A stretch of DNA of 64,000 nt from a phage. Shown here piece by piece: positions 5,860-40,988 of the stretch. The position numbers and the translations under genes are program-made. Within the stretch, counting starts at the first letter, position 1. Each line of letters begins with the position of its first letter. Where the stretch lies: sequence record PZ496581.1, one strand, 5' to 3'. The notes under the pieces were generated by a model. The model saw nothing but the letters and a program-made list of their open reading frames with translations, ran no database searches and was not told where the DNA came from.

Positions 5860-6051
5860 AATTAAATTACATTAAAATATGTTAAAGCCAACCATGTTCC
5901 AGTGAACGAACATGCGATGTAAAAACCCGTATCACAAATTGTTCTTAGTACAATAAGAAGTGCATTTTTCATAAGTACCTCAATGCAATTGAAAATATTA
6001 TACAAATCATAGGGATACTAAGCAACCATATTCCGATCCACATTTTAGAGC

Positions 6052-6315: not shown

Positions 6316-6342
6316 GATGTTATCCTCTTTTAGATAGGACTA

Positions 6343-6371
6343 CTATATCATAGTCCTACTTAGTTGTAAAC
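6343..6371 (-). promoter_or_regulatory. sigma70-type early promoter in stem-loop
   Basis: GTTTAC - 18 nt - TATAGT; flanked by TAGGACTA...TAGTCCTA. Confidence 0.5.
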
Positions 6372-6383
6372 ACTTTTATGAAA

Positions 6384-6860
6384 TTAAAGATGAAGATACC
6401 ACCCGTTGTAGTTGCTCTTGCGGACGATTTTCTTTAGGTCTTCATGGTCTCCCACGAACTTTATAGAATAAGAGAAGACGTCAGGTGAGGTTTCTTTGAC
6501 ATCTAATATAATAATGCAATCTGCGACTCGATGATTCAAGAAGGGCCCTATATTGATTCCATTACCACCCGGATAATCACCACTGTATCCTGTGGTAACC
6601 GAAATCCATTTAGAATCTATCTGGTGCGTCTTGACTTCGACACGCAACCCGCAGTATTTAGGATGAGCTAACACATCCCATGCATACGTGTACGGGTCTT
6701 CTACGTCTTCATTACCTTTATTAACATATCCGTCTAGCCAATTTGCTACTACATACTCTGCAAAGACTGCAACCTTACAACGTCGAACAACGTCTTCTTT
6801 TATTTGACCTGGATCTTGTTTCAACGAGTACCGAGCAGTGTCAGCAATCTTCACCTTCAT
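6384..6860 (-). CDS. hypothetical protein (denB-position)
   Basis: ORF-track ORF trimmed to internal ATG (MKVKIADTAR...); upstream extension looks non-coding. Confidence 0.4.
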   Translation of the reverse strand: MKVKIADTARYSLKQDPGQIKEDVVRRCKVAVFAEYVVANWLDGYVNKGNEDVEDPYTYAWDVLAHPKYCGLRVEVKTHQIDSKWISVTTGYSGDYPGGNGINIGPFLNHRVADCIIILDVKETSPDVFSYSIKFVGDHEDLKKIVRKSNYNGWYLHL

Positions 6861-6876
6861 TTCACTAGTCAAAAAC

Positions 6877-7164
6877 TCATTCGACAGGATAAATGTCGGA
6901 AGACTCTTCAGCCTCAACAGCCCCAAGTTCGTCTTTACCATAGATACCTCTGATATGTAGTTCGCCAAAATAAATGCGGTCACCTTCTTCAAGATATTCT
7001 GCATCTACAGGCGGAATTTCAATAACAACTTCGTCGCATTCTAACCAGCCGTAGTGTGCATCGCCAGGATGTTTTACCAATTTAGCACAATAAACTGATT
7101 TACACTTATGATGACCACGAAGATTAGCAATTTTGGATTCTGATACGTCAAATGGATGAATCAT
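6877..7164 (-). CDS. hypothetical protein
   Basis: 95 aa ORF just downstream of rIIB terminator. Confidence 0.4.
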   Translation of the reverse strand: MIHPFDVSESKIANLRGHHKCKSVYCAKLVKHPGDAHYGWLECDEVVIEIPPVDAEYLEEGDRIYFGELHIRGIYGKDELGAVEAEESSDIYPVE

Positions 7165-7176
7165 AATTACCCCTAA

Positions 7177-7200
7177 AGAAAAAAGGGGACCGAAGTCCCC
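7177..7200 (-). terminator. rho-independent terminator after rIIB
   Basis: GGGGAC-UUCG-GUCCCC hairpin then UUUUUUCUUU. Confidence 0.65.
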
Positions 7201-7205
7201 AATTA

Positions 7206-8153
7206 TTATTCTGTAAATAATTCAGTAACGTCTGAAATTACTTCATAACGACAAGTACGCATCTTAGCATCACCATAGTCAACCGGGATGGATACAACAT
7301 CACGTGGATGAACTTTAACTTTCACAACTTTATCTGAGCTTGAACCAAAGTGGCGAATATAAGATTTAGCACAAACGTGGAGACCGCGAGAACAGGTTTG
7401 AGTATCATCGTCGTTAACTCGAGTACGAGGCATTGAAACAACTTTACCTGGGGAGTTATCAAATGTACCACTATAACAGTCTAAATAGTCCTTACGAACT
7501 ACTTTCCACGCATAGAAATGACCATCTTCAGTGATTTCAATATCGTTTGCAACCAAGAAGTCGAATAAACGTTGTACAGCTTTTTCGCTTGGGTTTTCTA
7601 ACAGGTTTTCAAGGAATGGCAGATAGAATTTAAAGTCTTCACCTTTTTCCATGGAATCAATAATACGGTTAACCAGCCCTGAACGAATCTCTATACCTTG
7701 ATAAAATAAACTACCACCTTCAATAGTAACATTACCATCAACAAACTTAGTAATAGCTTTCTTGATGTTAATAAGTTCGACAGCTTTACTAAGGTTTCCT
7801 GCGACCAGATTAGCTTTAATTTCTTCAAAATTTGCATGACTTGATGGAGTCGCATTGTATGCTACGCGTCCTTCAATAATTGAAATAAATTTAGATGACG
7901 CGTTCCATACGATTTCAGGACGATGTCCGCCGATAATAGGTTCATCATTTTCTGGAACTTCTTCGATTACATAAGAGGCATCGTTTGCTTCAGGGACAAC
8001 GCCTTCTGCTTTAAAATTCTTAACAATCTTACGAAGAGTATCTGTTGAAATGTCGAAGTAATCGGCAATTTCTTTACGAGTCCATTTGCCTGATTCAACC
8101 AGGCCGTAAGCTTCTAACTGTTCTTCTTGGGACAAGCATTTAATATTGTACAT
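7206..8153 (-). CDS. rIIB: rIIB protein
   Basis: 315 aa; MYNIKCL... start and C-terminal ...VNDDDTQTCSRGLHVC.KSYIRHFGSS match T4 rIIB as recalled. Confidence 0.9.
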   Translation of the reverse strand: MYNIKCLSQEEQLEAYGLVESGKWTRKEIADYFDISTDTLRKIVKNFKAEGVVPEANDASYVIEEVPENDEPIIGGHRPEIVWNASSKFISIIEGRVAYNATPSSHANFEEIKANLVAGNLSKAVELINIKKAITKFVDGNVTIEGGSLFYQGIEIRSGLVNRIIDSMEKGEDFKFYLPFLENLLENPSEKAVQRLFDFLVANDIEITEDGHFYAWKVVRKDYLDCYSGTFDNSPGKVVSMPRTRVNDDDTQTCSRGLHVCAKSYIRHFGSSSDKVVKVKVHPRDVVSIPVDYGDAKMRTCRYEVISDVTELFTE

Positions 8154-8162
8154 AATGTTTCC

Positions 8163-10378
8163 TTATTTGGCCGCTTCCACGGCCTTCATGAATTTAACGA
8201 TTTGAGCGACCTGTTCTTTGGAAAGAGTACCACGTCGTCCCATGTATTCTGACACAATATGATAATTGGTTTCGAATTCAATAACCATTTTATCATCATT
8301 ATCGTAAGCATTATCTTTAAGCTTATCGAAAATTTTAGCGCACAATTCTAACTTCCTGTTCAGGTCTCTGTTATCAGCACCTGCGAATCGATTCCATCCC
8401 CAGCGATTATTTACTGTTGAGAGTTTTGCAAAGTCTTTACTGATTTCTTTGTTCTTAGAGCTAAAATACTTACTAAGGAAGTTAAGCTCTTCGTTACGAG
8501 TAATATGATTCAAATAAGGCTGTGCTCTACGACTTGGTGATACATACTCATCATAATCCACTTTATCAATTAGCGTAATATAGTCGTTAATTGATTTTTC
8601 GAACAAGCATTCTACTTCACCAAGTTTACGAACTTTCTTAGCAATCTGTGGACGGACTACAGTGAACTCTTTAATACCTGACAAATCAGCAATACGGGTC
8701 AAGAAATTGGAGTCATAGTTCAACCAACCTTTATCTGCGTCAAGACATTCAGCATTAGAACGATTACGAACTATAGCATAACCTTGGATTTCATCAGCTT
8801 CACTCGCTGGAATAAAGAGATCTTCCGATACCCAAACATCGTTTTCGTTCTTGAAGAAACGATGGGCACTCGGTGATTTAGGGCGAGGCCCATTAGAACG
8901 AGTCTTGACTTCAATCCATGGCTTAACGATTTGTAAAAGCTCTGAAGTCTTGTACATGTTAATGTTGTCGCCATCAAAGATAACTTTAAGGCGTTCCAGA
9001 AGTTTCATTGCATCTTCGTCTGTAGGGTCAACGAATAGTACGCTTTTACCAAAACCGCGTGGAACTTTACCGGTTAATTTAACCTCGTCTTTAGACATTT
9101 CAATTGAATTAAGAGCTCGCATTAATGGAACGCGTCCCTTAACGTCGTCAATAACAATTTCAACGTTTTTAATGTTAATGCCAATCAGGCTATTAATTGA
9201 AATGGTTGTTGATGAGCTACCACTTTCACGAATACGACGAAGACGAGGGGATTCAACGATATCGTATACGACGCCAAGATTACACCACTCAGGCCCCATT
9301 TTAAAACGTTTGTACAACTCGGAATAAGTTAGTTGTTCTTTAGAGTATTTCAGTGATTCAATATTAGACCCGGCCTTTTCCATGTATTTACGAGCGGTAT
9401 AGCCAAGAGAATCAATTTCACGGAACACATGACGTGGGTATTTACAATCAATCCATTTCTTAGAATCTTCAGCGAACAATTTAGCATCGATTTCTGCAAC
9501 ACGTTTATGGATATTTGCTACTGTACGTTTATCAAATGACAATGCTTCACGAGACGGGGCTACATCTAGTTCACCCATAGGGAATTTAATATAAGCTGTA
9601 GTGCATCGCGTCATCATCCATGTTTGTTCTTTAATAACACTTCCGATTGGATATACAATACCACCATAAACAGCCATGATATTACCACGTTCACCCCATG
9701 GAGCTTCCTTGGCCAAATATACATCGTCAAATTCAGGAAAGTATTTAATATCTTTAACACCACGAACTTCTGCAATATCACCTAGAGGACGCATAACATA
9801 TGCAATTTCAGATGCGAACTTTTCAAAATCTTCTGGGTTAACCGGTACAACTACTTCTACACCCGTACGGTCATCGGGGCCCATCTTATCTACAAAGGTT
9901 GGCTTAATTTGTGGACCTGTGTCATCTTGGTAGATTACGTAACCACGAACTTCACCGTTGTGATAAGACGTAAGGTTAAACGTATCGGTATATGCTAGTG
10001 GAGCTTTAGAGCCGAGTCCGAATCCACCAATGAAATCGTTACTCGATGTTTTAGTTGAAGCAAAATATGAGTTATAGATTCCTGGCTCTTCGTCATTACC
10101 TCGAATGGTGAAATCACTCATACCAGGACCAAAGTCTCGAACTACAAAACGCGGGTCTAAACGACCTGGAGCCTGAACAATAAACTTATCAGTGCAACCA
10201 TTAAGAATTTGTCCATCGATACAGTTTGTGATTAATTCACGTACACAAGCCAATTCTTTGTTTGTATAAAGGTCTCATTAGACAAAATCTTATAAACTTT
10301 GCTATTGCCTTGAATAGTGAATGCTGTGCTCTTACCGCCTGAACCAATAATTGTTTCTTTAGCCGTTTCAATAATCAT
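8163..10378 (-). CDS. rIIA: rIIA protein, reading frame broken near 10271-10276
   Basis: Main 696-codon frame has GHKL N-box (VRELITNCID) but no ATG; rIIA-like N-terminus MIIETAKETIIGSGGKS... starts at 10378 in another frame. Confidence 0.65.
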
Positions 10379-10390
10379 ATTTTTCTCTCA

Positions 10391-10591
10391 TCACAAGTTA
10401 CGTTTAAAAATTTCTGCTACTTCAAGAAGTTCTTCTTTAGTAGCTGTATCGGTTTGTATTTTATATCGAATTTCTTTAAAGCGTTCTTTAAAGGACTCTG
10501 CTGACTCGATATCAAAAAATCTTTGGATAAGCCGGAATTCCCGGAGCACTGCTTTATCAAAAAGTTCCAAGTCCACGTTATATGTTCTCAT
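10391..10591 (-). CDS. hypothetical protein (rIIA.1 position)
   Basis: 66 aa ORF immediately upstream of rIIA. Confidence 0.5.
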   Translation of the reverse strand: MRTYNVDLELFDKAVLREFRLIQRFFDIESAESFKERFKEIRYKIQTDTATKEELLEVAEIFKRNL

Positions 10592-10683
10592 AATATTCTC
10601 TTCAGTAGATTCCTAGGGCACTATTACTAAAGACCATATAATCTATCATCTTATGTGTAATAGTGTCTCAGGCTATTCAGGAT

Positions 10684-11784
10684 TTACGCTGTGAAGATTT
10701 TATCCCACATCGCAACAACTGCATCTCGGTTATACTTCTTCCATACTGCTTCAGCACGTTTAACTCGAGCTTCGTATGTGTCAGTGAATTCTAATACAGC
10801 TTTTGTGTAAAGCGCAACTACTTCTTTCTTAGGAGTAGAGGAATCAATTTCTACACGCACAGTATCTGGGTCATATTCGAATGTCGCGTGCGGATAATCC
10901 TTAAAAACTAACTGGATTACAGGGACACCTTTAGAGATGGCTTCAATAGAACTATTCTCTACCGTACCTGTGTCAGGACATGTATTAATAAGTGCTTTAG
11001 CTGTTTTAAGACGTTCCATGATTTCACTGTGTGGAGCATCAATAATAACAGGATATTTAGCTGGTGGTGCCCATTTGCTTGGACAATAACCAATACCATT
11101 TTCGCCTAGTGCTTTAATTGCTTCAAGAGCAACATCAGTGCGACGCATTTTAGTGTCATAACGTTGAGCACTAATAATCAAATCAGTTGCTGGGAGAACT
11201 TCTGGCTTTTCAGTCAAACAAATAACCGGATAATCTTCGGCTTCAAACAACGGATTTGCTCGCCAATAATCATAATCAATTTTGTCAGTCAGACCTGAAG
11301 TCATATAACAATATTTGCGTTCAAATTCACGGAAGGCTTTAGTAGGAGCATAACTCTTACCACCATTCTTATGAATTTGAATAGTCTGGTCCCAAATTTG
11401 AACAATGCCACGAGATACCGGTTCAAATGGTGTTGCCATAAAATTCTTATGAACTTTAGAGAGACCTGCGTCTTTAATTGCCTGAACGGTTAGTTTAGTC
11501 GGTTCCATAGTAACAACAAAATCGTATTCATGGATGCCGGCTAGTTCAACAATCTTACGAGCCATAGTATAACTCATACCTAGACTGAATTTAGTCAGAT
11601 GACCAACAGGATGGTGTGTAACTTTCCAGTCACCAAACGTGTCATTATCAAAGCCGATATAATCAATATCAGCACCGATGGACACAAGATATTTCAACAC
11701 ATTTAAATGTACTGCTTCAAGACCACCTTGTACACGGTCAGGATTAAATGGGACTGCACGAGATGGGATAAACATAACTTTCAT
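10684..11784 (-). CDS. GT-B-type glycosyltransferase candidate
   Basis: 366 aa; N-terminus MKVMFIPSRAVPFNPDRVQGGLEAVHLNVLKYL and C-terminal TCPDTGTVENSSIEAISKGVPVI resemble GT-B (GT4-like) signatures. Confidence 0.5.
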   Translation of the reverse strand: MKVMFIPSRAVPFNPDRVQGGLEAVHLNVLKYLVSIGADIDYIGFDNDTFGDWKVTHHPVGHLTKFSLGMSYTMARKIVELAGIHEYDFVVTMEPTKLTVQAIKDAGLSKVHKNFMATPFEPVSRGIVQIWDQTIQIHKNGGKSYAPTKAFREFERKYCYMTSGLTDKIDYDYWRANPLFEAEDYPVICLTEKPEVLPATDLIISAQRYDTKMRRTDVALEAIKALGENGIGYCPSKWAPPAKYPVIIDAPHSEIMERLKTAKALINTCPDTGTVENSSIEAISKGVPVIQLVFKDYPHATFEYDPDTVRVEIDSSTPKKEVVALYTKAVLEFTDTYEARVKRAEAVWKKYNRDAVVAMWDKIFTA

Positions 11785-11804
11785 AATTAAGCCTTATTAA
11801 AATT

Positions 11805-11827
11805 AAAATGAAGCTCCCGAAGGAGCT
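11805..11827 (-). terminator. possible terminator after gene 39
   Basis: AGCUCC-UUCG-GGAGCU hairpin overlapping stop, then U-rich tract. Confidence 0.45.
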
Positions 11828-13644
11828 TAGGACATCCATTCTTTACGAAGTTCTGAATCATCACCCATCAACATTTCAAAGAGTTCTTTCCAATTTTCAG
11901 GAAGTTTAACTACGTCGTACACAGGGTTCTGAATCATTTCACGATATTCTGACTTTTCAAGGGAGCCTAATCCCTTGATGTATCGAATACTATGCTTAGG
12001 CAGTGTATCTTTAACTTCTTCATACTCAGCTACAGTATAAAACCATTTTTGAGTTTTGCCAATTTGTGCAATAATTACAGGCGTTTTAACAAAGCGAATA
12101 CGTCCTTGTTCAAACAATTCAGGCCAATTACTAAAGAAAGCAAGCAAAGCCGGATAGATACTTCCAAGACCGTCGTGATCTGCATCAGTCATAATTGCAA
12201 TATTACGATAGTTCGTATTCTCTGCCTTTTCACCAAGAATAAGACCTGTGATAGCACAGATATCAAAGAGCTCTTTGTTCTTCATCATATCAGCATATGA
12301 CATACCCCAGCTATTCATCACCTTACCACGTAATGGGAATCCGCCGTGTAGTTCACGGTCACGAACATCAATGAGATAACCAATTGCCGAATCACCTTCT
12401 GTTAAAAACAATGTCGTATCTGCATCTTTACCACATTGGTTAGCTTTAATATGCTTATGAACCTTAGCTTTAGTCGCCTTTTTAGCTGCTTTAGTTTCTG
12501 CAGCCTTTTCTGCTGCCAATTTACGAGCTAATGCTGCTTCAACAATAGGCATAATCAAGGCTTCGTTTTTAAGAAGTGCCTGAGCAATTTTCTTAGCATC
12601 TAATTGGATATGATTACGAATATCACCATACGTTGACGTTAAACGTTCTTTAGTCTGAGAATCAAAACGCATGTTGCTCATGTCTCTAATAAACATCAAC
12701 ATTGTGAGGCATTCTTTAACACGAGCTTTAGTGACTTCAATACCCTTATATTTCTTTTTAATACCCGGCAAAAGATGTTCACAGATATCATCCATTACAC
12801 ATTCAACATGATGGCCACCATTTTTAGTATGGATGTTATTCACATAAGTTAAATGACGGAAGCCATCTGGTGATGTTGTGAATGCTATAGAGACTTTATC
12901 ATTTTCTTGAATGATGTTATCTTCACCGAATTGTTTAGCAAATCGTTTAAAATTACCATCAACCTTTTTACCATTAAATGTGAACTTGATATCAGGATAA
13001 ACGACTGCCAATGTTTGAAGTCGGTCTAAAGTAATATCTAAATAAATTTGAGATAAATTATGCTCTTCAAATGAAGTGAAATCAGGAGTGAAGATTACTT
13101 TAGTGCCTTTACCTTTAGATTTCTTAGAAGACCATGATTTGTTTTCCATTCCGTTTGAACAGTTAACAGTGATTTCATTTTCGCCATCTGATGTGATGCC
13201 TGTAAACAACGTAGAGAAGATATTAGTTAAACTACTCCCGACGCCGTTCATACCACCAGTCTTGCGTTCAGAGTCATCACCAAAGTTACCACCAGCCTTT
13301 GGAATAGTCCAGGCTGCTACAGGCCCAGGAATTTGTTCACCCGTTTGGTCGGTAACTAAACCTTGAGGAATACCACGTCCGTTATCTTCCACCGAAACTT
13401 GATTATTTTTAATTTGCACATCAATTTTATTTGCAAACTTAAATGATGTACGAATAGCTTCATCAACCGAGTTGTCAATAATCTCATCGATTAATTTAAC
13501 CAGGCCAGGAACATATTCAACTTGTTGATATTTACCAAACAAAAAACGCTCATGTGCTTCTTTAGCCGAAGAACCAATATACATACCACTACGTTTCTTA
13601 ATATGTTCTACATCTGACAATACCTTAATTTCATTTTTAATCAT
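11827..13644 (-). CDS. 39: DNA topoisomerase II large subunit (GyrB-like), 39 and 60 equivalents fused
   Basis: 605 aa continuous ORF; GHKL ATPase N-terminus, TOPRIM region; no split or bypass element. Confidence 0.9.
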   Translation of the reverse strand: MIKNEIKVLSDVEHIKKRSGMYIGSSAKEAHERFLFGKYQQVEYVPGLVKLIDEIIDNSVDEAIRTSFKFANKIDVQIKNNQVSVEDNGRGIPQGLVTDQTGEQIPGPVAAWTIPKAGGNFGDDSERKTGGMNGVGSSLTNIFSTLFTGITSDGENEITVNCSNGMENKSWSSKKSKGKGTKVIFTPDFTSFEEHNLSQIYLDITLDRLQTLAVVYPDIKFTFNGKKVDGNFKRFAKQFGEDNIIQENDKVSIAFTTSPDGFRHLTYVNNIHTKNGGHHVECVMDDICEHLLPGIKKKYKGIEVTKARVKECLTMLMFIRDMSNMRFDSQTKERLTSTYGDIRNHIQLDAKKIAQALLKNEALIMPIVEAALARKLAAEKAAETKAAKKATKAKVHKHIKANQCGKDADTTLFLTEGDSAIGYLIDVRDRELHGGFPLRGKVMNSWGMSYADMMKNKELFDICAITGLILGEKAENTNYRNIAIMTDADHDGLGSIYPALLAFFSNWPELFEQGRIRFVKTPVIIAQIGKTQKWFYTVAEYEEVKDTLPKHSIRYIKGLGSLEKSEYREMIQNPVYDVVKLPENWKELFEMLMGDDSELRKEWMS

Positions 13645-30077: not shown

Positions 30078-30440
30078 TTAAAAGAATTTAAATTTTTTCT
30101 TGGTTCGTTCATTAAAAGCTTGTTGTACTTGCATTGTAACACATTTTTCAACATGTGGTGCAAGTTCTGCTTTTCTGTCCTGGTCAAGAACTGCAAAGTC
30201 CATTACGATTTTACCATCAACCCAGTCTAGTTTTGTAATATAGACTATATGATGGGAACCGTCTTCAAGTGTAATCAGAATCTCTTGAATGACATTTTCC
30301 ATTGCTGAACGGATAATTTTAAGAGATTCATTAAACACTCGTTCTTTGCGAATGTCCTCCCCTTCCGAAGAAGGGGATTCATCAACGATTTCTAGATTTA
30401 AATCATCGAGATTATTCATCGAAATCTTCCATTTCGTCAA
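30078..30440 (-). CDS. hypothetical protein (gene 40 position)
   Basis: 120 aa ORF between 41 and uvsX. Confidence 0.45.
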   Translation of the reverse strand: MTKWKISMNNLDDLNLEIVDESPSSEGEDIRKERVFNESLKIIRSAMENVIQEILITLEDGSHHIVYITKLDWVDGKIVMDFAVLDQDRKAELAPHVEKCVTMQVQQAFNERTKKKFKFF

Positions 30441-31584
30441 GGTCGTTTTCTATATCTGCTGCAGATGGAGCATCAGAAGTTTTAACCGGAACTTTAGTTG
30501 TTGCTTTGCAATTAATAAGGTCGTTAACAGCGTCATCAACTTCTTTAATAGAAGAGATAGCACCTAGTTTATATTTAGTTTCAATTGCATCTCGGAAAGG
30601 TTTGTGTTTAAACAAAGGTCCCCAGAATTCTACACAATCAGTAGCTTTAGCACGCCATGATTTTTCTTCACGAATCATTTCACCTGTTTCTTCGTCAAGG
30701 AATTCGCGAGCATACCAACCGGCTTTAGGCTTAACCACAAAACCGATTTCAGTTGCCATTTCTAACAAGCCACTGAATGGGTCAATACCGCCATCAAAAT
30801 TAACCGTGATCGGGAAAGTAGATTTCTCTTTAACTGTGCGAGATTTTTCTGCTTTCAACGTGAAGTCATAACCGGTCAATTCTGTACCTTCTTTAACCTG
30901 ACGTTTAGAGATAAAAAACACTGTGTTGGCAGAATAAAGAATACCTGTACCACCGCCCATAATCTCTTTAGGATACAATCCGCCAATTTCCATTGCGGTA
31001 TGGTTAATTGCAACACACGGAATATCTTTAATAGTCAGATACGGGGTCACAATACGGAAAAGAGATTTAAGTGCCTTAGCACGAGACATATCACCTACAA
31101 CTTTCTCGTTCAATGCATCTTCAGTTTCTTTCTTAGATGCAGTATTACCGATTGAATCGATAAAGATAATAACTTTATCACCCCGTTCAATCGCGTCAAG
31201 CTGATTAGTCATATCAACTTTAAGTTGTTCGACGGATTGAATCGGAGTATGAACTACACGGTCTAAATCAACACCCATTGAACGAAAATAAGATTCTGAA
31301 GCACCGAATTCTGAGTCATAAAACAAACAGATTGCATCTTTATATTTCTTCATATACGCTGCGACCATAGTTAGTCCAAACAATGTTTTAAAATGTTTAG
31401 AAGGTGCAGCAAAAATAGTCAAGCCTGATTGCAATCCTGCATTCAGAGCACCACCTAGTGCAATATTCAACATCGGAATACGAGTAGGGACTTCATCACG
31501 ATTATTAAACAGCTTAGACTTAGTCAAGTCTGCAGTCATTTTAGAAGTAGAAGCTTTAATCAGACGAGATTTTAAATCAGACAT
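30412..31584 (-). CDS. uvsX: UvsX recombinase (RecA-like)
   Basis: 390 aa; RecA fold motifs; T4 UvsX size and position. Confidence 0.9.
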   Translation of the reverse strand: MSDLKSRLIKASTSKMTADLTKSKLFNNRDEVPTRIPMLNIALGGALNAGLQSGLTIFAAPSKHFKTLFGLTMVAAYMKKYKDAICLFYDSEFGASESYFRSMGVDLDRVVHTPIQSVEQLKVDMTNQLDAIERGDKVIIFIDSIGNTASKKETEDALNEKVVGDMSRAKALKSLFRIVTPYLTIKDIPCVAINHTAMEIGGLYPKEIMGGGTGILYSANTVFFISKRQVKEGTELTGYDFTLKAEKSRTVKEKSTFPITVNFDGGIDPFSGLLEMATEIGFVVKPKAGWYAREFLDEETGEMIREEKSWRAKATDCVEFWGPLFKHKPFRDAIETKYKLGAISSIKEVDDAVNDLINCKATTKVPVKTSDAPSAADIENDLDEMEDFDE

Positions 31585-31682: not shown

Positions 31683-32231
31683 TTAACGAGCCCATTTGAT
31701 GATTTCTGTAATCAAATCATTACGTTCGCTTGCATTAAATCCTATAACTTTGTTAGCACCATCATGATTAAGTAATTGATACGTTTGGATTTTGTTATGA
31801 ATTGCAAACTCTTCAAAATGTGAAATGACTGTATTAAAACCGAATGAAGACAAAGTAATAAGGTCGTCTTCAAAACTTTCAGTCATTTCGTTACGTGTTA
31901 AAATAATTGTGAACACATCATGGTTTTGGCAAAGACGAACATAATCCTGTTCATAAACGTCAAGAACCGAGTCCGCATCTTGTCGAATACGTCCATAAAC
32001 CCAGTTACTAATATATCCACGGTCTAATAGATAAATCTTAGTAGGGTCTAAATAATTCAACATCGTTTCGAAACAGCCAACTTCATTTCGAGACTTAACA
32101 TCGAAACGTCCATCAACTGTTCGTTTAGGGAAATCAATCTTTACATATCTTTCACTAATTTCCATTATGTCATTAATGAAAGTTGTTTTACCAGCATTAT
32201 CCGGGCCATCTACTAAAATAATTTTAGCCAT
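31683..32231 (-). CDS. P-loop kinase (thymidylate-kinase-like)
   Basis: 182 aa; Walker A GPDNAGKTT, LLDRGY resembling TMPK DRY motif; at T4 bgt position. Confidence 0.5.
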   Translation of the reverse strand: MAKIILVDGPDNAGKTTFINDIMEISERYVKIDFPKRTVDGRFDVKSRNEVGCFETMLNYLDPTKIYLLDRGYISNWVYGRIRQDADSVLDVYEQDYVRLCQNHDVFTIILTRNEMTESFEDDLITLSSFGFNTVISHFEEFAIHNKIQTYQLLNHDGANKVIGFNASERNDLITEIIKWAR

Positions 32232-32232
32232 T

Positions 32233-33132
32233 TTATTCCTCGATTACGACATCTTCGTATTTAGGTATATTATACGGTGAAGAAATTAAAGCATTAAAGT
32301 AGATGAACTCACCAAGACCTGGATGGAATACTTCTTCAGGATTTTCGAAATATTGAATCTTCGGACGTCCTTTAAGAATTTGATAGTACTCAGTTTTAGT
32401 TGGTTTAAAAATTCGAATCAACGCTTCTTCAGGATACTTATTTCTGTCGAAGCTATTATTTGGATCGGTTATATAAAGCGGTTGACCTAATTGAATTGCA
32501 CATTCAACCACTTGTTCAAAACGATAGCACGGGTCACTAATTCGAAATGGATGAAAAATACCATCTAGATGAATAGGAGCCAAATCACCTACAAGACGCT
32601 GCATGATGGAAGGACGTATAACTTTCTGGGTTATGATAATCTTATTACCATCGGCACCAGCGTTAACCAGCACTTCTTTTTGACGTTCATTCAACACAGT
32701 AGTTTGAAGTGAACGATTAACCGACAACATATCGGTTTTTAAGAATTCGTCAATATAAAAACGTGGTTTATTAGGGTCTGCAGTGATATTGAAATTGAAT
32801 TCCACATCAAAAGCGCCGTCATATCCGGTGATATCTGTGATTAGAAAATCACAATCATAATAAGCAATTAATGAATCAACCACAAATTCATTTTCAGACC
32901 AGAAATATTTACGAGTGTTATACGCGTTATCTTTATACCATAATGGAACAAACTTAAATTCTGGAAAAAGACGTTCGCATTCTTTAATATCAGATGCATT
33001 ACGTGGATATGTAATCACATCACCCGGATTAGCACGGTGCAAATGAAGTTGGAAGTTGCCATCCTTAAGGATAGCATACTGTCCAGTTTCATAAGACCGC
33101 ATACTCAAAATAGGTACGCGGAAAATAGCCAT
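32233..33132 (-). CDS. hypothetical protein
   Basis: 299 aa, no recognised motif; at T4 bgt position. Confidence 0.5.
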   Translation of the reverse strand: MAIFRVPILSMRSYETGQYAILKDGNFQLHLHRANPGDVITYPRNASDIKECERLFPEFKFVPLWYKDNAYNTRKYFWSENEFVVDSLIAYYDCDFLITDITGYDGAFDVEFNFNITADPNKPRFYIDEFLKTDMLSVNRSLQTTVLNERQKEVLVNAGADGNKIIITQKVIRPSIMQRLVGDLAPIHLDGIFHPFRISDPCYRFEQVVECAIQLGQPLYITDPNNSFDRNKYPEEALIRIFKPTKTEYYQILKGRPKIQYFENPEEVFHPGLGEFIYFNALISSPYNIPKYEDVVIEE

Positions 33133-33848
33133 TAGTCAAGGAATCCTTTAACATAATCAAAATCACGTTCAAACACATGGGCACTTACCATGGTATGAGT
33201 ATAATCACCAACTTCTACACCACATTCGTTAGCGATATAATGAAGTAATTTTCCTTGGAGATAAAAATCCAACTGCATAACAACAGCACAGTTCTGAGAA
33301 CGCATATGACAGTGGGTATAAAGCTTACCATCACGAATATAATAAGTCACTGAGTCAGTACATGGATATTCAAGCGTTTCGTCTGAATCAAGCAAAGCCT
33401 GATCAGAACTTTCTAGAATTTGGAACACAACTCTTCGAGAGTTAGGCTTCTCTTTAAGTTCTTTTAGAAGAGCTGGTAATTGGGCCGCAATGCGAGGACC
33501 ATAGAAAGTGTTGAAGTTCGCCGGCAAAACATCTGATTTTGGTTTAGAAATAAATTTAGCGACATTAGGATATGCCTTAAACGCTTCTTCTGCGTTGGTA
33601 CCACCAGAAATCATAAACTTCCAGAAGTCTTCGGCATATTCATAAGAGATGCGGTTAATACGTGGGTCGGTCATTTTGAATGATGATGGAGTGTCAACAA
33701 CTACTGTCATAGACCCAATTTCATTACAACGTCCAATACGAGAATCAGTTACGAATTCCGGGTTTTCTAAAATTTCACGATTGACTGCTTTAAATGCGGT
33801 TTGAAAATCTGCGGCTTTGATATATTTCATTGTGTTATGTTTTCCCAT
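33132..33848 (-). CDS. 42: dCMP hydroxymethylase-like (thymidylate synthase fold)
   Basis: 238 aa; PNSRR...YPCTDSVTYYIRDGKLYTHCHMRSQNCAVV parallels T4 gp42 PDSRRG...CTNTVQYLIRD...NMRSNDVV; divergent. Confidence 0.7.
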   Translation of the reverse strand: MGKHNTMKYIKAADFQTAFKAVNREILENPEFVTDSRIGRCNEIGSMTVVVDTPSSFKMTDPRINRISYEYAEDFWKFMISGGTNAEEAFKAYPNVAKFISKPKSDVLPANFNTFYGPRIAAQLPALLKELKEKPNSRRVVFQILESSDQALLDSDETLEYPCTDSVTYYIRDGKLYTHCHMRSQNCAVVMQLDFYLQGKLLHYIANECGVEVGDYTHTMVSAHVFERDFDYVKGFLD

Positions 33849-33890
33849 GTTTACCTCAATACAATTTATTATATACTCAATTCGTAAAGC

Positions 33891-34130
33891 TTATTTGAAT
33901 TTCTTGACAATGTTGATATAACGTAAAGCTTCAGCATCGATACTTCCAAGAACACTATGAAGAAATGCATCAGCGTAGTATTCCAATTGAACAGGTTCTT
34001 TAATCACTTTAGCCGCTTTAGTTTCAAACAGGCCCATCAGGGCCTGTTTAAGAATTTGTTCATTAGTGTTCAGTTTCATAGTCAAAATCTCTTCATTAAG
34101 TTGGTGGTTAAAAGTTTTTCTAGAAATCAT
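33891..34130 (-). CDS. hypothetical protein
   Basis: 79 aa ORF. Confidence 0.4.
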   Translation of the reverse strand: MISRKTFNHQLNEEILTMKLNTNEQILKQALMGLFETKAAKVIKEPVQLEYYADAFLHSVLGSIDAEALRYINIVKKFK

Positions 34131-35287
34131 TCCGGGTACCTCAAAGCGTCATCAGAGTTAGTTATATCAATAATAGATATAGAGTTTTCTGCTAACCCGT
34201 TTTTAGATAATTGACGTTTATAATATCTTTCACAATATGTACACGTCGTCCCGCAGATTTCATTAGCACAATCGAAATCTGGATGTCTGAACCACCTTTT
34301 TTCTAAAAAGCCATCTAACAAAGAGGTTTCAATATTTACTGTATGTGAAAACTCAGTTTCGTTTTCAAGAGTGAAAATAGTCTCTAAAGGCTTCCACAGT
34401 TCTAACAAATTACCTTCAAACTTTTCAGAAGCGTATGCTTCAAGAACTTTCAAAATGTAGTCTGTGCTACCTGTACGTCCTGAAACTTTGAATTGAGTGA
34501 TACCAATATCATTATAAAGTTTCAAATCTTGAGGACGAACAAAACGAGTTCTCAACCAGTTAAATGGGTCTGTATCACGAGCTTTAATACAGTGCTGCAT
34601 AGGATATCCGTTTAAGGATTTAGCATCATCAGCTGTAACATCAGTACTATGGAAAATATAGCAAGAGTCACGATAGCTACAATGTGTTGTATACCCTTTA
34701 CCAGCATTAGAACAGAACTCATTTACAAGAACTTCAAATATTATATTGTTCTTATTGCAAAACTCTGCTGCACGCTTCAGGAAAGAAACTGAACGGTTCT
34801 TATGAATTCCACAGCAGACCTTTTTGATATTATATTGGTCATGCAAGTATTTGATTTGAGTTACAGCATCGACATGTAGAATTGTTGAAACTTCAATCTC
34901 AATGTCTTTATTGACTTCACGAACAATTTCCATAACAACAGGGTTAGCGATAGTAATACGCCATACGCCTATTGACCAAAGATACTGAACATAATCCTGA
35001 ATAGCTTTCTTCTTCCACTCAACTAGTTCTCTTTTTGAACCAGGATTTATCGTGTTGAGTGTATAGTTAAAGCAAATACCTAATTCGTTACAACGTTTAA
35101 CGTAATCTTCTAACATCTTTTTGTCAACGTCAGGAAGCCTAAAATCAGGTCTGGCTGCTACAAAAGCCATTTCTCTTGTAGAGCCGTATACTTCATTTAT
35201 CAAGCTATTAGGATAAGTTTTATTGAGCTCTACGATTTTATCAAGAAGAGCTAAATCAAAATTCGTTCCGATTTTAAAAGTATTCAT
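34127..35287 (-). CDS. hypothetical enzyme, weakly peptidase-U32-like
   Basis: 386 aa; EVLVNEFCSNAGKGYTTHCSY loosely resembles U32 signature; Cys cluster CGTTCTYC at C-terminus. Confidence 0.45.
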   Translation of the reverse strand: MNTFKIGTNFDLALLDKIVELNKTYPNSLINEVYGSTREMAFVAARPDFRLPDVDKKMLEDYVKRCNELGICFNYTLNTINPGSKRELVEWKKKAIQDYVQYLWSIGVWRITIANPVVMEIVREVNKDIEIEVSTILHVDAVTQIKYLHDQYNIKKVCCGIHKNRSVSFLKRAAEFCNKNNIIFEVLVNEFCSNAGKGYTTHCSYRDSCYIFHSTDVTADDAKSLNGYPMQHCIKARDTDPFNWLRTRFVRPQDLKLYNDIGITQFKVSGRTGSTDYILKVLEAYASEKFEGNLLELWKPLETIFTLENETEFSHTVNIETSLLDGFLEKRWFRHPDFDCANEICGTTCTYCERYYKRQLSKNGLAENSISIIDITNSDDALRYPE

Positions 35288-35347
35288 TTTTTTTGCATCT
35301 CGCGTTAATTGATGTGATGGTTTTTTTTGCAGGTCTTACTTAAATTA

Positions 35348-35749
35348 TTATAGATTCGGTTTATATGATTTAAATGTTTCGAATTCGCCTTTATTCATAA
35401 GAGCTTTGAATTCGTCAGGACGCATAGCTTTGTCGTCGATAATCCAATCATATACTGGTTTATGTGTTAGCAAATTATGGTACTTCAAACCAATGTTTTC
35501 CAAGTTCTGAATCAGACTTGGGAGAATGTCAATTGCTATACGACCAGGACCTACTGACTTCATACCACGAGCAGTGTAAAGCGTTATGGTATGCCCTGCA
35601 TCATACAGGGCATTAATGGCAGACACCATTTCGACGTCTGGTTTGAAGTTCACGTAATCACGATTGTTATTCCATTCCGTGATGCAATCATCGACATCAA
35701 AACAAAGATTAAGCATGTTTTCTACACGGTGCATTAGATTCGTTCCCAT
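35348..35749 (-). CDS. HAD-superfamily phosphatase
   Basis: 133 aa; motif I FDVDDCIT, motif IV WIIDD. Confidence 0.55.
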   Translation of the reverse strand: MGTNLMHRVENMLNLCFDVDDCITEWNNNRDYVNFKPDVEMVSAINALYDAGHTITLYTARGMKSVGPGRIAIDILPSLIQNLENIGLKYHNLLTHKPVYDWIIDDKAMRPDEFKALMNKGEFETFKSYKPNL

Positions 35750-37419
35750 TGATGAGTGATATCGCCACCGATTGGACGATAGGAAACACCAGTTTCTTTA
35801 TCAGTTAGTACCCATTTACCAGGATTTTTTGTAATCAGAGTAGCCGTTACAGGTTCTGCTACGTCATAACTAATAGAGCCGTCCTGAAGTACACGGCCCA
35901 TGTTACGTAATTGCTTAGTCAGAAGTTCCATACCTTTATAATATGCGGCTACCGCTTTAAGTGGATTATTCTTGAAATAACCACCTAATGCAATCCAGAT
36001 AATTGCCACTGCCAAATGATGATACTCGTTAAACGAACTCATCTTTCCATATTTGTAAACTAATGGATTGATGTTAATAGTCACATTACAAGTTGTTTCA
36101 TCAATAGTAAACTGTCCCCAGGTCGGATTAGCATTGAATTCATCATAACCTGAAACAGCATAAAGCACTTTAGCTTCATCATACAATTTTGGCCCGTAAA
36201 TCTTGGTTTCGCCAAAATATCCACGAGGGTCGATAAACTTGACTTCGCCGTTATCAGTAATCATAGTATTACTGAAGTTCGGGTCACCATGAATAACAGA
36301 GTACTGTCCCTGAGAACGGTTATGATAACGAATAAGATGTTCTAAAGCTTGTTTCAACATTGGCTTCAGACGTCCAATCTTAGTGTAGTTCACATGTGTG
36401 ATTTTACCAAATGAATCAATCAATGGTTGAATGCTTTCACAACGATCAATAACTTTCGTATAGAATTCTTTAGTGAAATCACGACGAACAGTTTCAGGAC
36501 TTACAAAATAAGTGTCTGTGCTGAATTTCAGTGCATCTAAAATTGCATCAACAATTTGTGGACGAGCAAGACTTGATTTGGATTTAATATATTCAAATGC
36601 TGGCTTACCTTTAATGCGTTCCATTTCAAAGTTATTTTCATTAACAGAAACTAACTGAGGAACTGAATCTGATTTCACTTTAAGATACCACGAAATCTCA
36701 TCTTTCTGAAGAGCTCGTCCCTGTTCGGTTAATGCGAATTTAGTTACAGTTTCTTCACCAATTTCAACTGCATTAAAACTACGATTAAGTTCACGAACTT
36801 CATGAGCTTTTTCAAGTTTAGGCATATCACCTAAATCAATTAGATTCATAAGCTCTGATTTATTGAATGCGCTGGCGTAAAGGAATTCTACGAAATCACG
36901 TCCTTTGCAGTATTCATGAATTTCTTCATCAGTAGAACCCATATAGAATTCCCAGTCTTTGAACTGATAAATTCCTACAACATTACCACCTGTTGAACCT
37001 ACGTTAGTGATATTTTCACCGTCGAAATTATATCGACATTCGTCACCCTTAACATAGATTGCGTTAACATTCCAAGACCATGAACCAAAATCAGGAATAA
37101 TATCACACCAGTTAACAATTACATTATGGCCGTCTAAATCTTTGTGTAATTTAGCAAGAGCATAAGCAGAACCATACGCTTCATCAACTGTACGAATAGT
37201 CACATTGAACCCTTCTTGCTCACAATAAGCTCGAACAGTTTCAGCAAATTTTGAATGAACTACTACAATAATTTCATCTGCGCCAAGGTCAGAATAAATT
37301 GTATACAAATTGCTCAGAATAGTGTCTTGTTTATAATTCACAAGAACTTTTGGAATATGATGCGTTATTGGATACAAACGAGTTGCCAGTCCAGCACCAA
37401 GAATAACAGCTTTTTTCAT
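35734..37419 (-). CDS. bifunctional sugar-phosphate nucleotidyltransferase / APH-like kinase
   Basis: 561 aa; N-terminal AVILGAGLATRL...PKVLV; C-terminal HGDPNFSN...IDPRG. Confidence 0.65.
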   Translation of the reverse strand: MKKAVILGAGLATRLYPITHHIPKVLVNYKQDTILSNLYTIYSDLGADEIIVVVHSKFAETVRAYCEQEGFNVTIRTVDEAYGSAYALAKLHKDLDGHNVIVNWCDIIPDFGSWSWNVNAIYVKGDECRYNFDGENITNVGSTGGNVVGIYQFKDWEFYMGSTDEEIHEYCKGRDFVEFLYASAFNKSELMNLIDLGDMPKLEKAHEVRELNRSFNAVEIGEETVTKFALTEQGRALQKDEISWYLKVKSDSVPQLVSVNENNFEMERIKGKPAFEYIKSKSSLARPQIVDAILDALKFSTDTYFVSPETVRRDFTKEFYTKVIDRCESIQPLIDSFGKITHVNYTKIGRLKPMLKQALEHLIRYHNRSQGQYSVIHGDPNFSNTMITDNGEVKFIDPRGYFGETKIYGPKLYDEAKVLYAVSGYDEFNANPTWGQFTIDETTCNVTININPLVYKYGKMSSFNEYHHLAVAIIWIALGGYFKNNPLKAVAAYYKGMELLTKQLRNMGRVLQDGSISYDVAEPVTATLITKNPGKWVLTDKETGVSYRPIGGDITHQWERI

Positions 37420-37600: not shown

Positions 37601-38236
37601 TCATTGTTCGCCTCGTAACATGGCACCTAGTGCACCGCCTGGATGGAACTTAAGGAAATCATTAGAGGTAAATCCACGTTCAGACGAAAGGTTGATAGCA
37701 AACGTATCGATAAGTGCTAACAACAATGTAGTGGACATCGTCGGAGCTAAAGAGTTCTCGTCAACTTCTACCGCGATACCGGTGCAGAACGTATAATCAA
37801 AAAGAGCTTCGTATTCTTGTGGAATGTCAGGGTTACAATGTAACAGAATCTGTTTAACCTGAGGACGAATCATACGAAGATGTTTAGCAACACCTATCAT
37901 TTCTTCAGTCTTACCAGAACGACTGATGTGAACTAATACATCATTAGGTGCAATAAATCCTGCGTCACCATGAGAATAATGCCCGGTGTTCAAATACATG
38001 CTAGGAATACCTAGTGAAGCAAAAGTCTCGGAAGCTTTAGTTGCGATATTAGCATTCTTACCAACACCTGTAATAATTACCCGGCTTTCATAATTACTAA
38101 GTCCAGGGCGTCGAAGAGTTTCTAGAATAGCATTATAACGAGCAGGGTTTTGACTAATTACTTTAGCCATAGTGGCAAGAGATGAAGCTTGTTTTACGAT
38201 TGCGTCAATAGCGATAGTAATAGGAGTAGTTTTCAT
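37601..38236 (-). CDS. SIS-domain sugar-phosphate isomerase (arabinose-5-phosphate isomerase-like)
   Basis: 211 aa; VIITGVGKN, HISRSGKTEE, APTMSTT, FHPGGALG align with KdsD/GutQ SIS domain as recalled; no CBS domains. Confidence 0.75.
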   Translation of the reverse strand: MKTTPITIAIDAIVKQASSLATMAKVISQNPARYNAILETLRRPGLSNYESRVIITGVGKNANIATKASETFASLGIPSMYLNTGHYSHGDAGFIAPNDVLVHISRSGKTEEMIGVAKHLRMIRPQVKQILLHCNPDIPQEYEALFDYTFCTGIAVEVDENSLAPTMSTTLLLALIDTFAINLSSERGFTSNDFLKFHPGGALGAMLRGEQ

Positions 38237-38276: not shown

Positions 38277-40988
38277 TCAAAAATCAAACATATCGAACAG
38301 AGATGCTTTCTTCTCGTAATCGAGTTTAGCTGCTGATGTGAATCCTTCAAGTGGTTTAATAAATGTCTTCTCAAGGAGAACAGTGTAGTCCATCCAATGA
38401 AGTACATCGTCTTTAATTAAATCTGTGATTTCAGTACCAGAAGGCCATGCGATACATTTATCACCGAATGGGTTTCCTTCACGTAAAGGCAGAACATATA
38501 CTTTTTCACCTTCTACAACTTGCGGTGCATCGATATTACCTTTGATAGCCCGGTTATACGTCAGAATTCCACGAATATGGAACGGGCATTTGGGACCAGG
38601 GAATCCACCGACGTCATATTTAGCAATGTTATTCGCAGAAGATACCGACGCGATGCTAATATAATTCAACTGACGGAATTCTTTTTCAAACTCTTTAAAA
38701 TATTCTTGTAATGATTCTTCACCTTCCTGAAGCATACGACGAATACATTCCTTAAGAGCTTTCTGTACTGCTTTAGGAGTCGAAGATTTCTGTGTTTCGA
38801 GACCCATGATTTTAAGCTTAGGTTCAGCGTATCTGGTTCCTTCCATATCCCATACATTCAAGGCATAACGTTTCTTACCTGTCCAAAATCCGCCAATACC
38901 TTTAGAACCAAGCGGAGGCCCAGCGATAGCTTCTCGGTCCATGAACATTAAGTGTTGTTTATTGTTCATGTATTCACACATTTCACGGAAACCTCTATCA
39001 ATAGCTGGTTCCATACGTTCACGTGCAAACTTATCTAAGAAGTCTACCCAATGGTTGGTATCACGGAATTTAGATTCACCAACCTTATCGATAATTTTAT
39101 CGGCAGATACGTAAATAGAGTCTGTATCACCATAAAGAACGAAAGCTTCACCTTCTGTACCACAAACTTCATTCAGATATTCATTAACTTTACGTTCAAT
39201 CCACTGTAAAGCCATTTGTCCGAATGTTGTGATTGCAGTAGCATTACGCAAATCATAATAACGGAACCAAACGTTTCCAAGTGCACCATAAAGTGAGTTG
39301 ATGAGCAATTTACGGTTAATTTGTGCAGTCATACCTGCAACTTCAGTACGTTGAGCTCTAAACAACATTTCATTAAGAGATTTAGCAGACAACTTTTTAA
39401 TCTTTTCTTTAATCTCATCGCTGAAGTCGAAACGATAATCAACATCTAATGGTTCGTCAACAGAAAGATTAGGATTATGCAATGCCTCTTTAATTATTTC
39501 ACCATTACGTTGAGCTGCAAGCATGTAACCTTTATGTTCTTTACGTTGATTAAAGACCTTAGTGATTTCAGTTGGAACTACACCATCACGGTCTTTATAA
39601 TACATCATGCCGTTAGGAGAACAACTGTACACATCTGAAGGACGTTCAGCGATTGCGTTAATATAATCATGCAATGGAGCTACTTTAAACGTTCCTGCTA
39701 TTGTTTCCGGGCTAATATTCACTTGGCGAATAATACTTGGATACAGAGATGTAAGGTCGAAACTCATTACATATTTGTATCGATTTGGAATAGGTTCCTT
39801 AACAAAAGCGCCAGGATAAGGTTGAACCGGGTGAGAACGACCTTGTGGAATCACCTTGTTCTGTTCTTTAAGGCTATTAAAAATAATAGCATCCCATGTT
39901 TTAATTGGGCCAAACACAGATTGAATCTGTATCTTAGCATAATAACCCATGTCCAAACTCAAGTTGATGAACTGACGCTTAGCATCAATTTGCAATACAC
40001 GATACACATCGATAATGTTATAAGAAATATATCGTTGGTGATTGCTTTCACGAAGTTTAGAAATAGGGCCGTCATATTTCAGTTTACCAACGTTCAATTC
40101 AAATTCTGAAATGTAATCCAGAGAATACGATGGTTGATTGGTAAAAGAGAATTTTTTGTAAAGGTCAATGTAATCAAGAACAGAGATACCGAACAATGTA
40201 ATGATTTCACGAGAACCATACATGTTTTCGATAACTTTAACACGAGTTTTACGATGTGGTGATAAACGTTTCGCAGTAGATTCGCCAAAAATATTCTTGA
40301 TTCGGTTATACACATATGGAATATCGAATGACTCAACGTTCCATCCAGTCAAAATGACAGGAGTTTTCTGTTGCCAGAAGTTGAGATATTCCATCAACAA
40401 TTCTTTTTCGTTATCGAACGGTATATAAATGATTTTATCGATAATTTCGGATGGAACTTCATCACCACCTTGTTCTTGAAGCTTAGCCGCAATTTCGATA
40501 GACCATTCTTCTACATTACCATACGGAGAATTCAATAGATCAAATACGTAGAACCTGTCGTCAATTGAGTCATAATGGGTGATAGCATCAATCGGATGTT
40601 TTGCTTGTGATGGCTCAGGGAACCCATCCGGAGATGTTACTTCGATGTCGAAGTTAGCCACACGAATTTTTGTATGGTCGTATTTGATTTCATAGTTATA
40701 AGTGTCAGACAAATACGCCAATTTGAAATCGTCCATACCAAGTGCTTCAAGTCCGATATCTTCCATGCGTTTAATCCATTGGGAGGCATCACGCATATTA
40801 GCGAACAACTTACGAGTACACGGCTTACCGTAGATATCGAAATATTTCGTAGCCTGACTTTCTGGACAATGAGCAAACAGTGATGGTTTATATTCTACTT
40901 CACGAGTACGTTCACGGCCATTAGAATCGATGTAACGTTCAAAAATTGAATCACCAATCTGTTCAACCGTTAAGTAAAATTCTTTCAT
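38277..40988 (-). CDS. 43: DNA polymerase (family B)
   Basis: 903 aa; exo FDIE, polymerase YGDTDS; MKEFYLTVEQ start. Confidence 0.95.
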   Translation of the reverse strand: MKEFYLTVEQIGDSIFERYIDSNGRERTREVEYKPSLFAHCPESQATKYFDIYGKPCTRKLFANMRDASQWIKRMEDIGLEALGMDDFKLAYLSDTYNYEIKYDHTKIRVANFDIEVTSPDGFPEPSQAKHPIDAITHYDSIDDRFYVFDLLNSPYGNVEEWSIEIAAKLQEQGGDEVPSEIIDKIIYIPFDNEKELLMEYLNFWQQKTPVILTGWNVESFDIPYVYNRIKNIFGESTAKRLSPHRKTRVKVIENMYGSREIITLFGISVLDYIDLYKKFSFTNQPSYSLDYISEFELNVGKLKYDGPISKLRESNHQRYISYNIIDVYRVLQIDAKRQFINLSLDMGYYAKIQIQSVFGPIKTWDAIIFNSLKEQNKVIPQGRSHPVQPYPGAFVKEPIPNRYKYVMSFDLTSLYPSIIRQVNISPETIAGTFKVAPLHDYINAIAERPSDVYSCSPNGMMYYKDRDGVVPTEITKVFNQRKEHKGYMLAAQRNGEIIKEALHNPNLSVDEPLDVDYRFDFSDEIKEKIKKLSAKSLNEMLFRAQRTEVAGMTAQINRKLLINSLYGALGNVWFRYYDLRNATAITTFGQMALQWIERKVNEYLNEVCGTEGEAFVLYGDTDSIYVSADKIIDKVGESKFRDTNHWVDFLDKFARERMEPAIDRGFREMCEYMNNKQHLMFMDREAIAGPPLGSKGIGGFWTGKKRYALNVWDMEGTRYAEPKLKIMGLETQKSSTPKAVQKALKECIRRMLQEGEESLQEYFKEFEKEFRQLNYISIASVSSANNIAKYDVGGFPGPKCPFHIRGILTYNRAIKGNIDAPQVVEGEKVYVLPLREGNPFGDKCIAWPSGTEITDLIKDDVLHWMDYTVLLEKTFIKPLEGFTSAAKLDYEKKASLFDMFDF

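Follow-up and report, generated by a model that had tools for sequence, protein, structure and literature searches.

The window analysed here, a 64,000-nucleotide stretch of phage DNA (sequence record PZ496581.1), is from a Mosigvirus (RB69-like) genome, and the list of its ORFs places an ATG-initiated reading frame of 366 aa, encoding the GT-B glycosyltransferase candidate considered below, on the minus strand at 10684..11784. The translation of this ORF includes MKVMFIPSRAVPFNPDRVQGGLEAVHLNVLKYL and TCPDTGTVENSSIEAISKGVPVI, and the N- and C-terminal strings quoted in a first-pass annotation of the same DNA are found in it. That annotation had also put the gene between rIIA.1 and gene 39, and both the ORF order and the PHROG matches agree: on one side lies rIIA.1 (66 aa, 10391..10591; PHROG 1683; 100% identity to RB69 rIIA.1), and on the other a fused gene 39 for the topoisomerase II large subunit (605 aa, 11827..13644; PHROG 543), residues 452-605 of which give a gp60-like match. 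Because gene 39 is fused, the T4-style interval with a separate gene 60 and mobA is absent here. The gene order around the 366-aa ORF is the same in RB69, Bas46 and ESh27. As a separate observation on this region, comparison with RB69 and Bas46 shows that rIIA in the window contains an inserted GA (2 bp, ~10273-10276), which causes a frameshift after about codon 34. A split rIIA in several Mosigvirus records was also considered and set aside; in ESh27, the one record checked, it is a mislabelled rIIA.1.

A Shine-Dalgarno-like AAGG, read from the sequence, stands at 11792..11795 of the minus strand, 7 nt 5' of the ATG, as expected from the earlier claim that the gene has a Shine-Dalgarno sequence of its own. 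The accompanying claim that the gene is bracketed by terminator hairpins holds on the upstream side, where the terminator scan called a terminator-like hairpin at 11811..11828 on the minus strand (AAGCTCC-TTCG-GGAGCTT; 7 pairs, 4 GC). This hairpin, AAGCTCCTTCGGGAGCTT, and its T-rich tail come right after the gene 39 stop and 5' of the transferase gene. On the downstream side, 3' of the stop codon, there is a long imperfect hairpin at ~10612..10672 (minus strand), with 9-bp arms CACTATTAC and GTAATAGTG and an inner stem (RNA fold -25.8 kcal/mol, z = -2.77), but the terminator scan makes no call there and, because it has no U-run, this hairpin is not a canonical intrinsic terminator. No promoter above the shuffled background was found in the 42-nt gap 5' of the gene, which is probably read through from gene 39 or transcribed from within it.

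The ORF lies far beyond chance and is a genuine gene, because its match to PHROG 8302 is full-length (residues 1-366 of 366, E 4e-222) and tblastn gives 210 phage records in which 80% or more of the protein is covered. At the nucleotide level, 154 phage records match a 1.7-kb region with coverage above 80%, and identity reaches 98.4% in the closest of them (PNJ-6, PhAPEC2, HX01, JS09 and others). The protein itself is 98.9% identical (362/366) to RB69 ORF003c/gp3 (NP_861693.1), 98.4% identical to Bas46_0103, annotated as 'putative hmC-arabinosyltransferase', and 98.6% identical to the phage HY126 glycosyltransferase of PDB entries 9iqz (apo; E 5e-250) and 9ir0 (with UDP), both released on 2025-07-16. 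These three proteins share with the window protein the 366-aa length, the position, the accompanying cassette and the fold (TM 0.97). Only 4-6 substitutions separate it from them, 0 of which fall in invariant or nearly invariant family columns, and a comparison of sequence, length, synteny, cassette and fold found no functional distinction. Judged by these identities, the gene and its counterparts in RB69, Bas46 and HY126 are orthologs. The gene is thus already known, having been a candidate since 2018, with a crystal structure in 2025 and a pathway role in papers of 2025-2026, and in itself it offers nothing biologically new beyond the 2018-2026 literature. The family to which it belongs amounts to 11 clusters (50% identity, E<=1e-3) in a representative library of 1.84 billion proteins.

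Searches with the 366-aa protein returned no family match in Pfam (E<=10) or NCBIfam (E<=1), including no match to the Pfam profiles for CAZy GT4, Glycos_transf_1 (PF00534) and Glyco_trans_4, at E<=10, and a HMMER profile of the family matched 9iqz and nothing else in the PDB. Sequence profiles of HMMER sensitivity cannot confirm the glycosyltransferase assignment, and fold comparison is needed. A first AlphaFold run with a 6-sequence alignment gave a pLDDT of 58. The second alignment was enlarged to 13 sequences by five remote homologs of full length, a shorter homolog of 302 aa and a marginal match, all from an exhaustive representative search, and with it the AlphaFold (AF2) model reached a pLDDT of 91.5 and a pTM of 0.87. 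Strand and helix elements alternate in the two halves of this model, which Foldseek aligns to 9iqz with a TM of 0.97 (rmsd 1.3 A) and to the UDP-bound 9ir0 with a TM of 0.96. At E<=1e-3 it matches 325 PDB chains, and all of the 50 listed are GT-B-fold proteins. As modelled, the 366-aa protein is a GT-B fold with two Rossmann-like domains. Its best non-phage structural matches are of the retaining GT4 type, namely the tetrahydrobiopterin glucosyltransferase 9v0l, BshA (3mbo), PimA (2gej), MshA (3c4q), WaaG (2iv7), PglA and sucrose-phosphate synthase, with TM 0.6-0.67, E 1e-9 to 1e-12 and 10-14% identity. The TM of 0.97 to 9iqz and these GT4-type neighbours bear out what had been read from the letters as a GT-B-like N-terminus and a GT4-like C-terminus. 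HHpred against glycosyltransferase families had been suggested as a check on that reading, and such a search had in fact already been made, and passed, with RB69 ORF003c, giving E 1.9e-24 to the T4 alpha-GT 1XV5 and ~1e-26 to GT4 structures (Thomas et al. 2018, PMC6024577).

Within the family, the invariant residues include G20-G21 (in GGLE), R208 and R214, six apart, and E281, and E276 is nearly invariant; E276 and E281 both lie within TGTVENSSIEA. By analogy with PimA and MshA, we take G20-G21, R208/R214 and E276/E281 to be the glycine loop, the basic pair and a variant EX7E of a GT4-like donor site. When the EX7E motif was checked by eye, without structural superposition, it was G273 that stood 8 residues before E281, with E276 nearly invariant. 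The conserved residues thus resemble a GT4-like donor site, and the 98.6% identity to the UDP-bound protein of 9ir0, together with the TM of 0.96, predicts that the 366-aa protein binds a UDP donor.

A possible source of that donor lies elsewhere in the window, where an arabinose cassette occupies 31683-38236, between uvsX (30412..31584) and the DNA polymerase gene (38277..40988), with all genes on the minus strand. From the uvsX side, it consists of a nucleotide (thymidylate-like) kinase (31683..32231; PHROG 761; 99.5% identity to RB69 gp45); a 299-aa putative first (base-proximal, alpha) arabinosyltransferase corresponding to RB69 gp46:47 (32233..33132; PHROG 3891, E 8e-156); a thymidylate-synthase homolog, the 5-hydroxy-dCMP synthase (33132..33848; Pfam PF00303; 99.2% identity to RB69 gp48); a peptidase-U32-like protein (34127..35287; Pfam PF01136; PHROG 5757; 98.7% identity to RB69 gp50); an AfhF-like sugar phosphatase of HAD type (35348..35749; PHROG 1238; 94.7% identity to RB69 gp51), with a role as described in PMC13326640; an AfhE-like bifunctional protein of 561 aa, sugar-1-phosphate nucleotidyltransferase and kinase (35734..37419; PHROG 4098), equivalent to RB69 ORF53_52c (gp52:53); and a SIS-domain arabinose-5-phosphate isomerase (37601..38236; Pfam SIS; PHROG 5670; 96.7% identity to RB69 gp55). 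The cassette is complete, with ~95-99.5% identity wherever the RB69 counterpart is intact. The 561-aa protein has a Pfam NTP_transferase match in its N-terminal part and weak kinase matches in its C-terminal part, its equivalence to the RB69 protein being drawn from the PHROG alone, and proteins of this type make UDP-arabinofuranose (PMC6024577, PMC13326640). The 299-aa transferase is one intact ORF, 100% identical to the Bas46 protein by tblastn and with identities of 97.8% and 100% to the two pieces into which its RB69 counterpart is split, and a base-proximal role has been proposed for its type (PMC13326640, PMC13390438). On the side, the intact 299-aa and 561-aa ORFs of the window corroborate that sequencing errors lie behind the split ORFs 46/47 and 52/53 of the RB69 reference.

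The complete cassette and the 98.6% identity to the UDP-bound HY126 enzyme support the first-pass annotation in its view of a DNA glycosyltransferase fed by the NDP-pentose of the 42-43 cassette. The acceptor base that it had named, hmC, is instead 5-hydroxycytosine, the ThyA homolog of the window being 99.2% identical to RB69 gp48, which has been shown experimentally to be a 5hodCMP synthase (PMC13326640). In place of the RSCD169 of E. coli ThyA, the window homolog carries RSQN, in a locally ambiguous alignment. MS and NMR have established that RB69 DNA carries alpha-D-Araf-5-hydroxy-dC and beta-D-Araf-(1->3)-alpha-D-Araf-5-hydroxy-dC (Lee et al. 2026, PMC13326640). Across phages, the number of transferases goes with the length of the arabinoside, as Thanatos has one and makes mono-arabinose, RB69 and NP have two and make mono- and di-arabinose, and DLP3 has three and makes tri-arabinose (PMC13326640, PMC13390438). 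Two putative DNA arabinosyltransferases are described as acting in sequence in Mosigvirus, the second of them encoded between rIIA and the topoisomerase gene (PMC13390438), and RB69p003 appears as 'beta-arabinosyltransferase 2', as a proposal, in Table 1 of PMC13326640, a paper that indicates experimental confirmation for DLP3 gp76/77 and the ThyA homologs only. In vitro, DLP3 gp76 and gp77 together add further Araf from UDP-Araf onto arabinosylated RB69 DNA, and purified gp76, gp77 and gp79 are each inactive alone on 5hoC-DNA, gp76 and gp77 working only jointly (PMC13326640).

Which of the two arabinoses the 366-aa enzyme adds can be approached through the distribution of the two transferases. 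A tblastn search located the 299-aa type in 349 phage records, among them those of Klebsiella (26), Serratia (14), Enterobacter (9), Proteus (7) and Yersinia (6) phages, and the 366-aa type in 212 (Mosigvirus 156, Acinetobacter phages 55, Tegunavirus 1), with one copy per Mosigvirus (at least 95% identity) and two per Acinetobacter phage (~42%). In the Klebsiella, Serratia, Enterobacter, Proteus and Yersinia phage groups, tblastn found no match of the ORF003c type, one Tegunavirus record apart, so that the 366-aa type is practically limited to phage groups in which the 299-aa type is present as well. Full-length identity of the 366-aa protein is 43% with DLP3 gp77 and 40% with gp76, and the two DLP3 proteins share 58% with one another. 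BLASTP detected no similarity between the 366-aa and 299-aa transferases, and the idea that the two are recent paralogs was ruled out on that account. The 299-aa transferase of the cassette is probably the base-proximal enzyme, being the likelier of the two for that role, and therefore the 366-aa enzyme probably glycosylates the first arabinose and not the base. Based on the nested phylogenetic profile, the co-orthology with DLP3 gp76/gp77 and the published proposals, it is likely that the 366-aa enzyme adds the second, beta-1,3-linked arabinofuranose; both the choice of step 2 over step 1 and the assignment of this linkage to the 366-aa enzyme are what we infer from that evidence. The gene is probably the 'Aat' of Bas46, presuming that Aat is its ortholog and that the name denotes the transferase adding further arabinoses.

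Some points count against the second-step reading. The second linkage is beta, whereas the proteins closest in fold belong to the retaining GT4 type. DLP3 gp76 and gp77 are active only as a pair (PMC13326640), so that a single enzyme may not suffice, and Pfam and NCBIfam profiles by themselves assign the protein to no glycosyltransferase family. The protein may be an inverting catalyst in a retaining-type scaffold, if the donor is UDP-alpha-D-Araf, or its selectivity may set a sequence-context-dependent ratio of mono- to di-arabinosylation and so lay a second, patterned layer of modification over the DNA, although we hold this suggestion to be rather doubtful. The alternative that it is the first, base-proximal arabinosyltransferase acting on the modified cytosine was put forward for RB69 ORF003c in 2018 and is effectively also what the first-pass annotation had read. 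ORF003c was then the sole RB69 protein to score against HMMs of T4 alpha-GT and phage G gp306, besides its HHpred E of 1.9e-24 to 1XV5 (PMC6024577), and the annotation of the Bas46 ortholog as an hmC-arabinosyltransferase points the same way; RB69 gp46:47 was at that time split by a sequencing error and went unnoticed. Many phage groups hold the hydroxylase/UDP-Araf cassette and the 299-aa transferase without an ORF003c-type gene, the mono-arabinosylated Thanatos has the cassette-type transferase alone, and DLP3 gp76 and gp77 act on arabinosylated DNA but are inactive on 5hoC-DNA (PMC13326640). Moreover, a deletion of Aat, the probable ortholog in Bas46, is obtainable and was scored for defence sensitivity, the phage being sensitised to a defence system (PMC13216743, citing Mahler 2025). 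A base-proximal role for the 366-aa protein is, in light of this, unlikely.

It is quite improbable that the 366-aa protein is instead a non-autonomous partner, dependent on complex formation with the 299-aa transferase or on obligate oligomerisation, that tunes the extent or sequence context of arabinosylation and does not catalyse step 2 independently. The tri-arabinosyl product of DLP3 does form only with both gp76 and gp77 (PMC13326640), but Mosigvirus has one copy, and the DLP3 pair arose as paralogs specific to that lineage (58% mutual identity, 40-43% to the 366-aa protein). The chain labels of 9iqz/9ir0 reach H in the PDB match table, compatible with crystal oligomers, and conversion is incomplete in RB69 and NP, whose DNA contains both mono- and di-arabinosyl cytosine, in NP at 1:4 (PMC13390438); against this, all putative donor-site residues are kept and the ortholog alone binds UDP (9ir0). 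Finally, the top non-phage structural matches are GT4 enzymes acting on lipids, LPS or small molecules, and one phage record labels an ortholog as a phosphatidylinositol mannosyltransferase, which would fit a non-DNA target such as a host envelope glycolipid or protein, as with PimA, WaaG and BshA. That the family has only 11 clusters in the representative library, that among annotated phage genomes it is restricted to groups with the 5hoC/UDP-Araf cassette, that its genes sit inside the cassette in DLP3, the Acinetobacter phage examined, and that DNA is the substrate of the paralogs in vitro (PMC13326640) make such a target highly improbable.

With the 366-aa protein taken as the second arabinosyltransferase, the pathway in this phage could be envisioned as follows. 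The ThyA homolog would replace dCMP with 5-hydroxy-dCMP, and the isomerase, the kinase/nucleotidyltransferase and the phosphatase of the 42-43 cassette would convert ribulose-5-phosphate to UDP-D-arabinofuranose. The 299-aa transferase would attach the first arabinofuranose to the base at O5, in the alpha configuration, after which the 366-aa enzyme, with UDP-Araf bound in the cleft that separates its two Rossmann-like domains, would link another arabinofuranose to the first one at O3. The resulting beta-D-Araf-(1->3)-alpha-D-Araf-5-hydroxy-dC in the DNA would protect the genome against defences based on restriction, CRISPR and glycosylases.

A parallel to this second step is found in DLP3, whose gp77 and gp76 (beta-arabinosyltransferases 2 and 3) have the GGLE, R-x5-R and TGTVEN-S-EAIS-G-PV core in common with the window protein and work with UDP-Araf on DNA that is already arabinosylated (PMC13326640). 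DLP3 has the gene in duplicate, inside the cassette beside the kinase, whereas the window has a single copy ~20 kb from the cassette, and DLP3 builds a tri-arabinoside where Mosigvirus builds a di-arabinoside. The alpha- and beta-GT of T4 (GT72 and GT63) are likewise GT-B enzymes that use a UDP-sugar and decorate a modified cytosine of phage DNA after replication, but they work with glucose and 5hmC, not with arabinofuranose and 5hoC, and their acceptor is a hydroxyl of the base, while that of the window enzyme is probably a hydroxyl of the sugar. The 366-aa protein had no HMMER profile similarity to either T4 enzyme, and neither was among its top 50 Foldseek matches. A closer functional analogy than the T4 enzymes is the beta-alpha-GT of T2/T6, which adds the second glucose of gentiobiose. 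With the bacterial GT4 enzymes (BshA, PimA, MshA, WaaG and 9v0l), the protein would share, in the by-eye mapping, the N-terminal glycine-rich loop, the basic pair and the C-terminal acidic helix motif, but it differs from them in having, by that mapping, G273 in place of the first Glu of EX7E, in its putative acceptor, a DNA-borne sugar, and in a product linkage that is reported to be beta.

Arabinosylated 5-hydroxycytosine is a recently characterised hypermodification of phage DNA and a barrier to restriction enzymes, type I CRISPR-Cas and the Brig1 glycosylase, and the second arabinose reportedly alters which defences see the DNA. For the phage of the window, DNA with both mono- and di-arabinosyl-5-hydroxycytosine can be predicted, and this predicted modification matters for its sequencing, cloning and engineering and for its use in phage therapy.

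In the window, the gene for the ORF003c-type glycosyltransferase (366 aa, the probable second DNA arabinofuranosyltransferase) is the sole occupant of the interval between rIIA.1 and gene 39. Gene 39 itself (11827..13644) encodes a fused topoisomerase II large subunit of 605 aa, with the gp60-like segment included as residues 452-605, and thus the gene 60/mobA interval of T4 is absent from the window. In the same region, rIIA (8163..10378, minus strand) is frameshifted by a 2-bp insertion, GA, at 10273-10276 (about codon 34), where the window reads AATGAGACC and both RB69 and Bas46 read AATGACC, so that the gene is broken into an N-terminal ORF of 48 aa (10232..10378) and, in a different frame, a remainder of 696 aa (8163..10253). 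The rIIA of ESh27, another Mosigvirus, is intact at 2214 nt. The insertion in the window could be a genuine rII mutation or an assembly error.

Within the 5-hydroxycytosine/UDP-arabinofuranose modification cassette, two genes are each present as one intact ORF in the window, while being split in the RB69 reference record: the 299-aa transferase, a putative base-proximal arabinosyltransferase (32233..33132; ORFs 46/47 in RB69), and the 561-aa nucleotidyltransferase/kinase (35734..37419; ORFs 52/53). The intact ORFs lend support to the published explanation, in which the splits in RB69 stem from errors of Sanger sequencing. The ThyA homolog (33132..33848) carries RSQN opposite RSCD169 of E. coli ThyA, which would agree with D169N, the published signature of 5-hydroxy-dCMP synthases, although MAFFT places a gap of 2 residues here and the column assignment, and with it the agreement, is uncertain. 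Also conserved inside the cassette is a peptidase-U32-like protein (34127..35287), the counterpart of RB69 gp50, to which the published pathway gives no step and which was tentatively labelled a "sugar or heterocycle reductase" in Table 1 of PMC13326640.

When the phage collection was searched by tblastn with window 10687-11784, an ORF003c-type match at less than 60% identity was found in one record with an organism name starting with "Tegunavirus"; in the same collection, the Yersinia Tegunavirus records, e.g. TG1, had the 299-aa type only. The single match may represent a further poly-arabinosylation lineage or may simply be a weak match. In the case of the Acinetobacter phage DLP3, there are two ORF003c-type paralogs, both inside the modification cassette and adjoining the kinase (6001-8296 of the DLP3 sequence, L001), whereas the single Mosigvirus copy lies about 20 kb from the cassette, at the rIIA/39 junction. 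It follows from these two arrangements that the ORF003c-type gene was relocated in one of the lineages.
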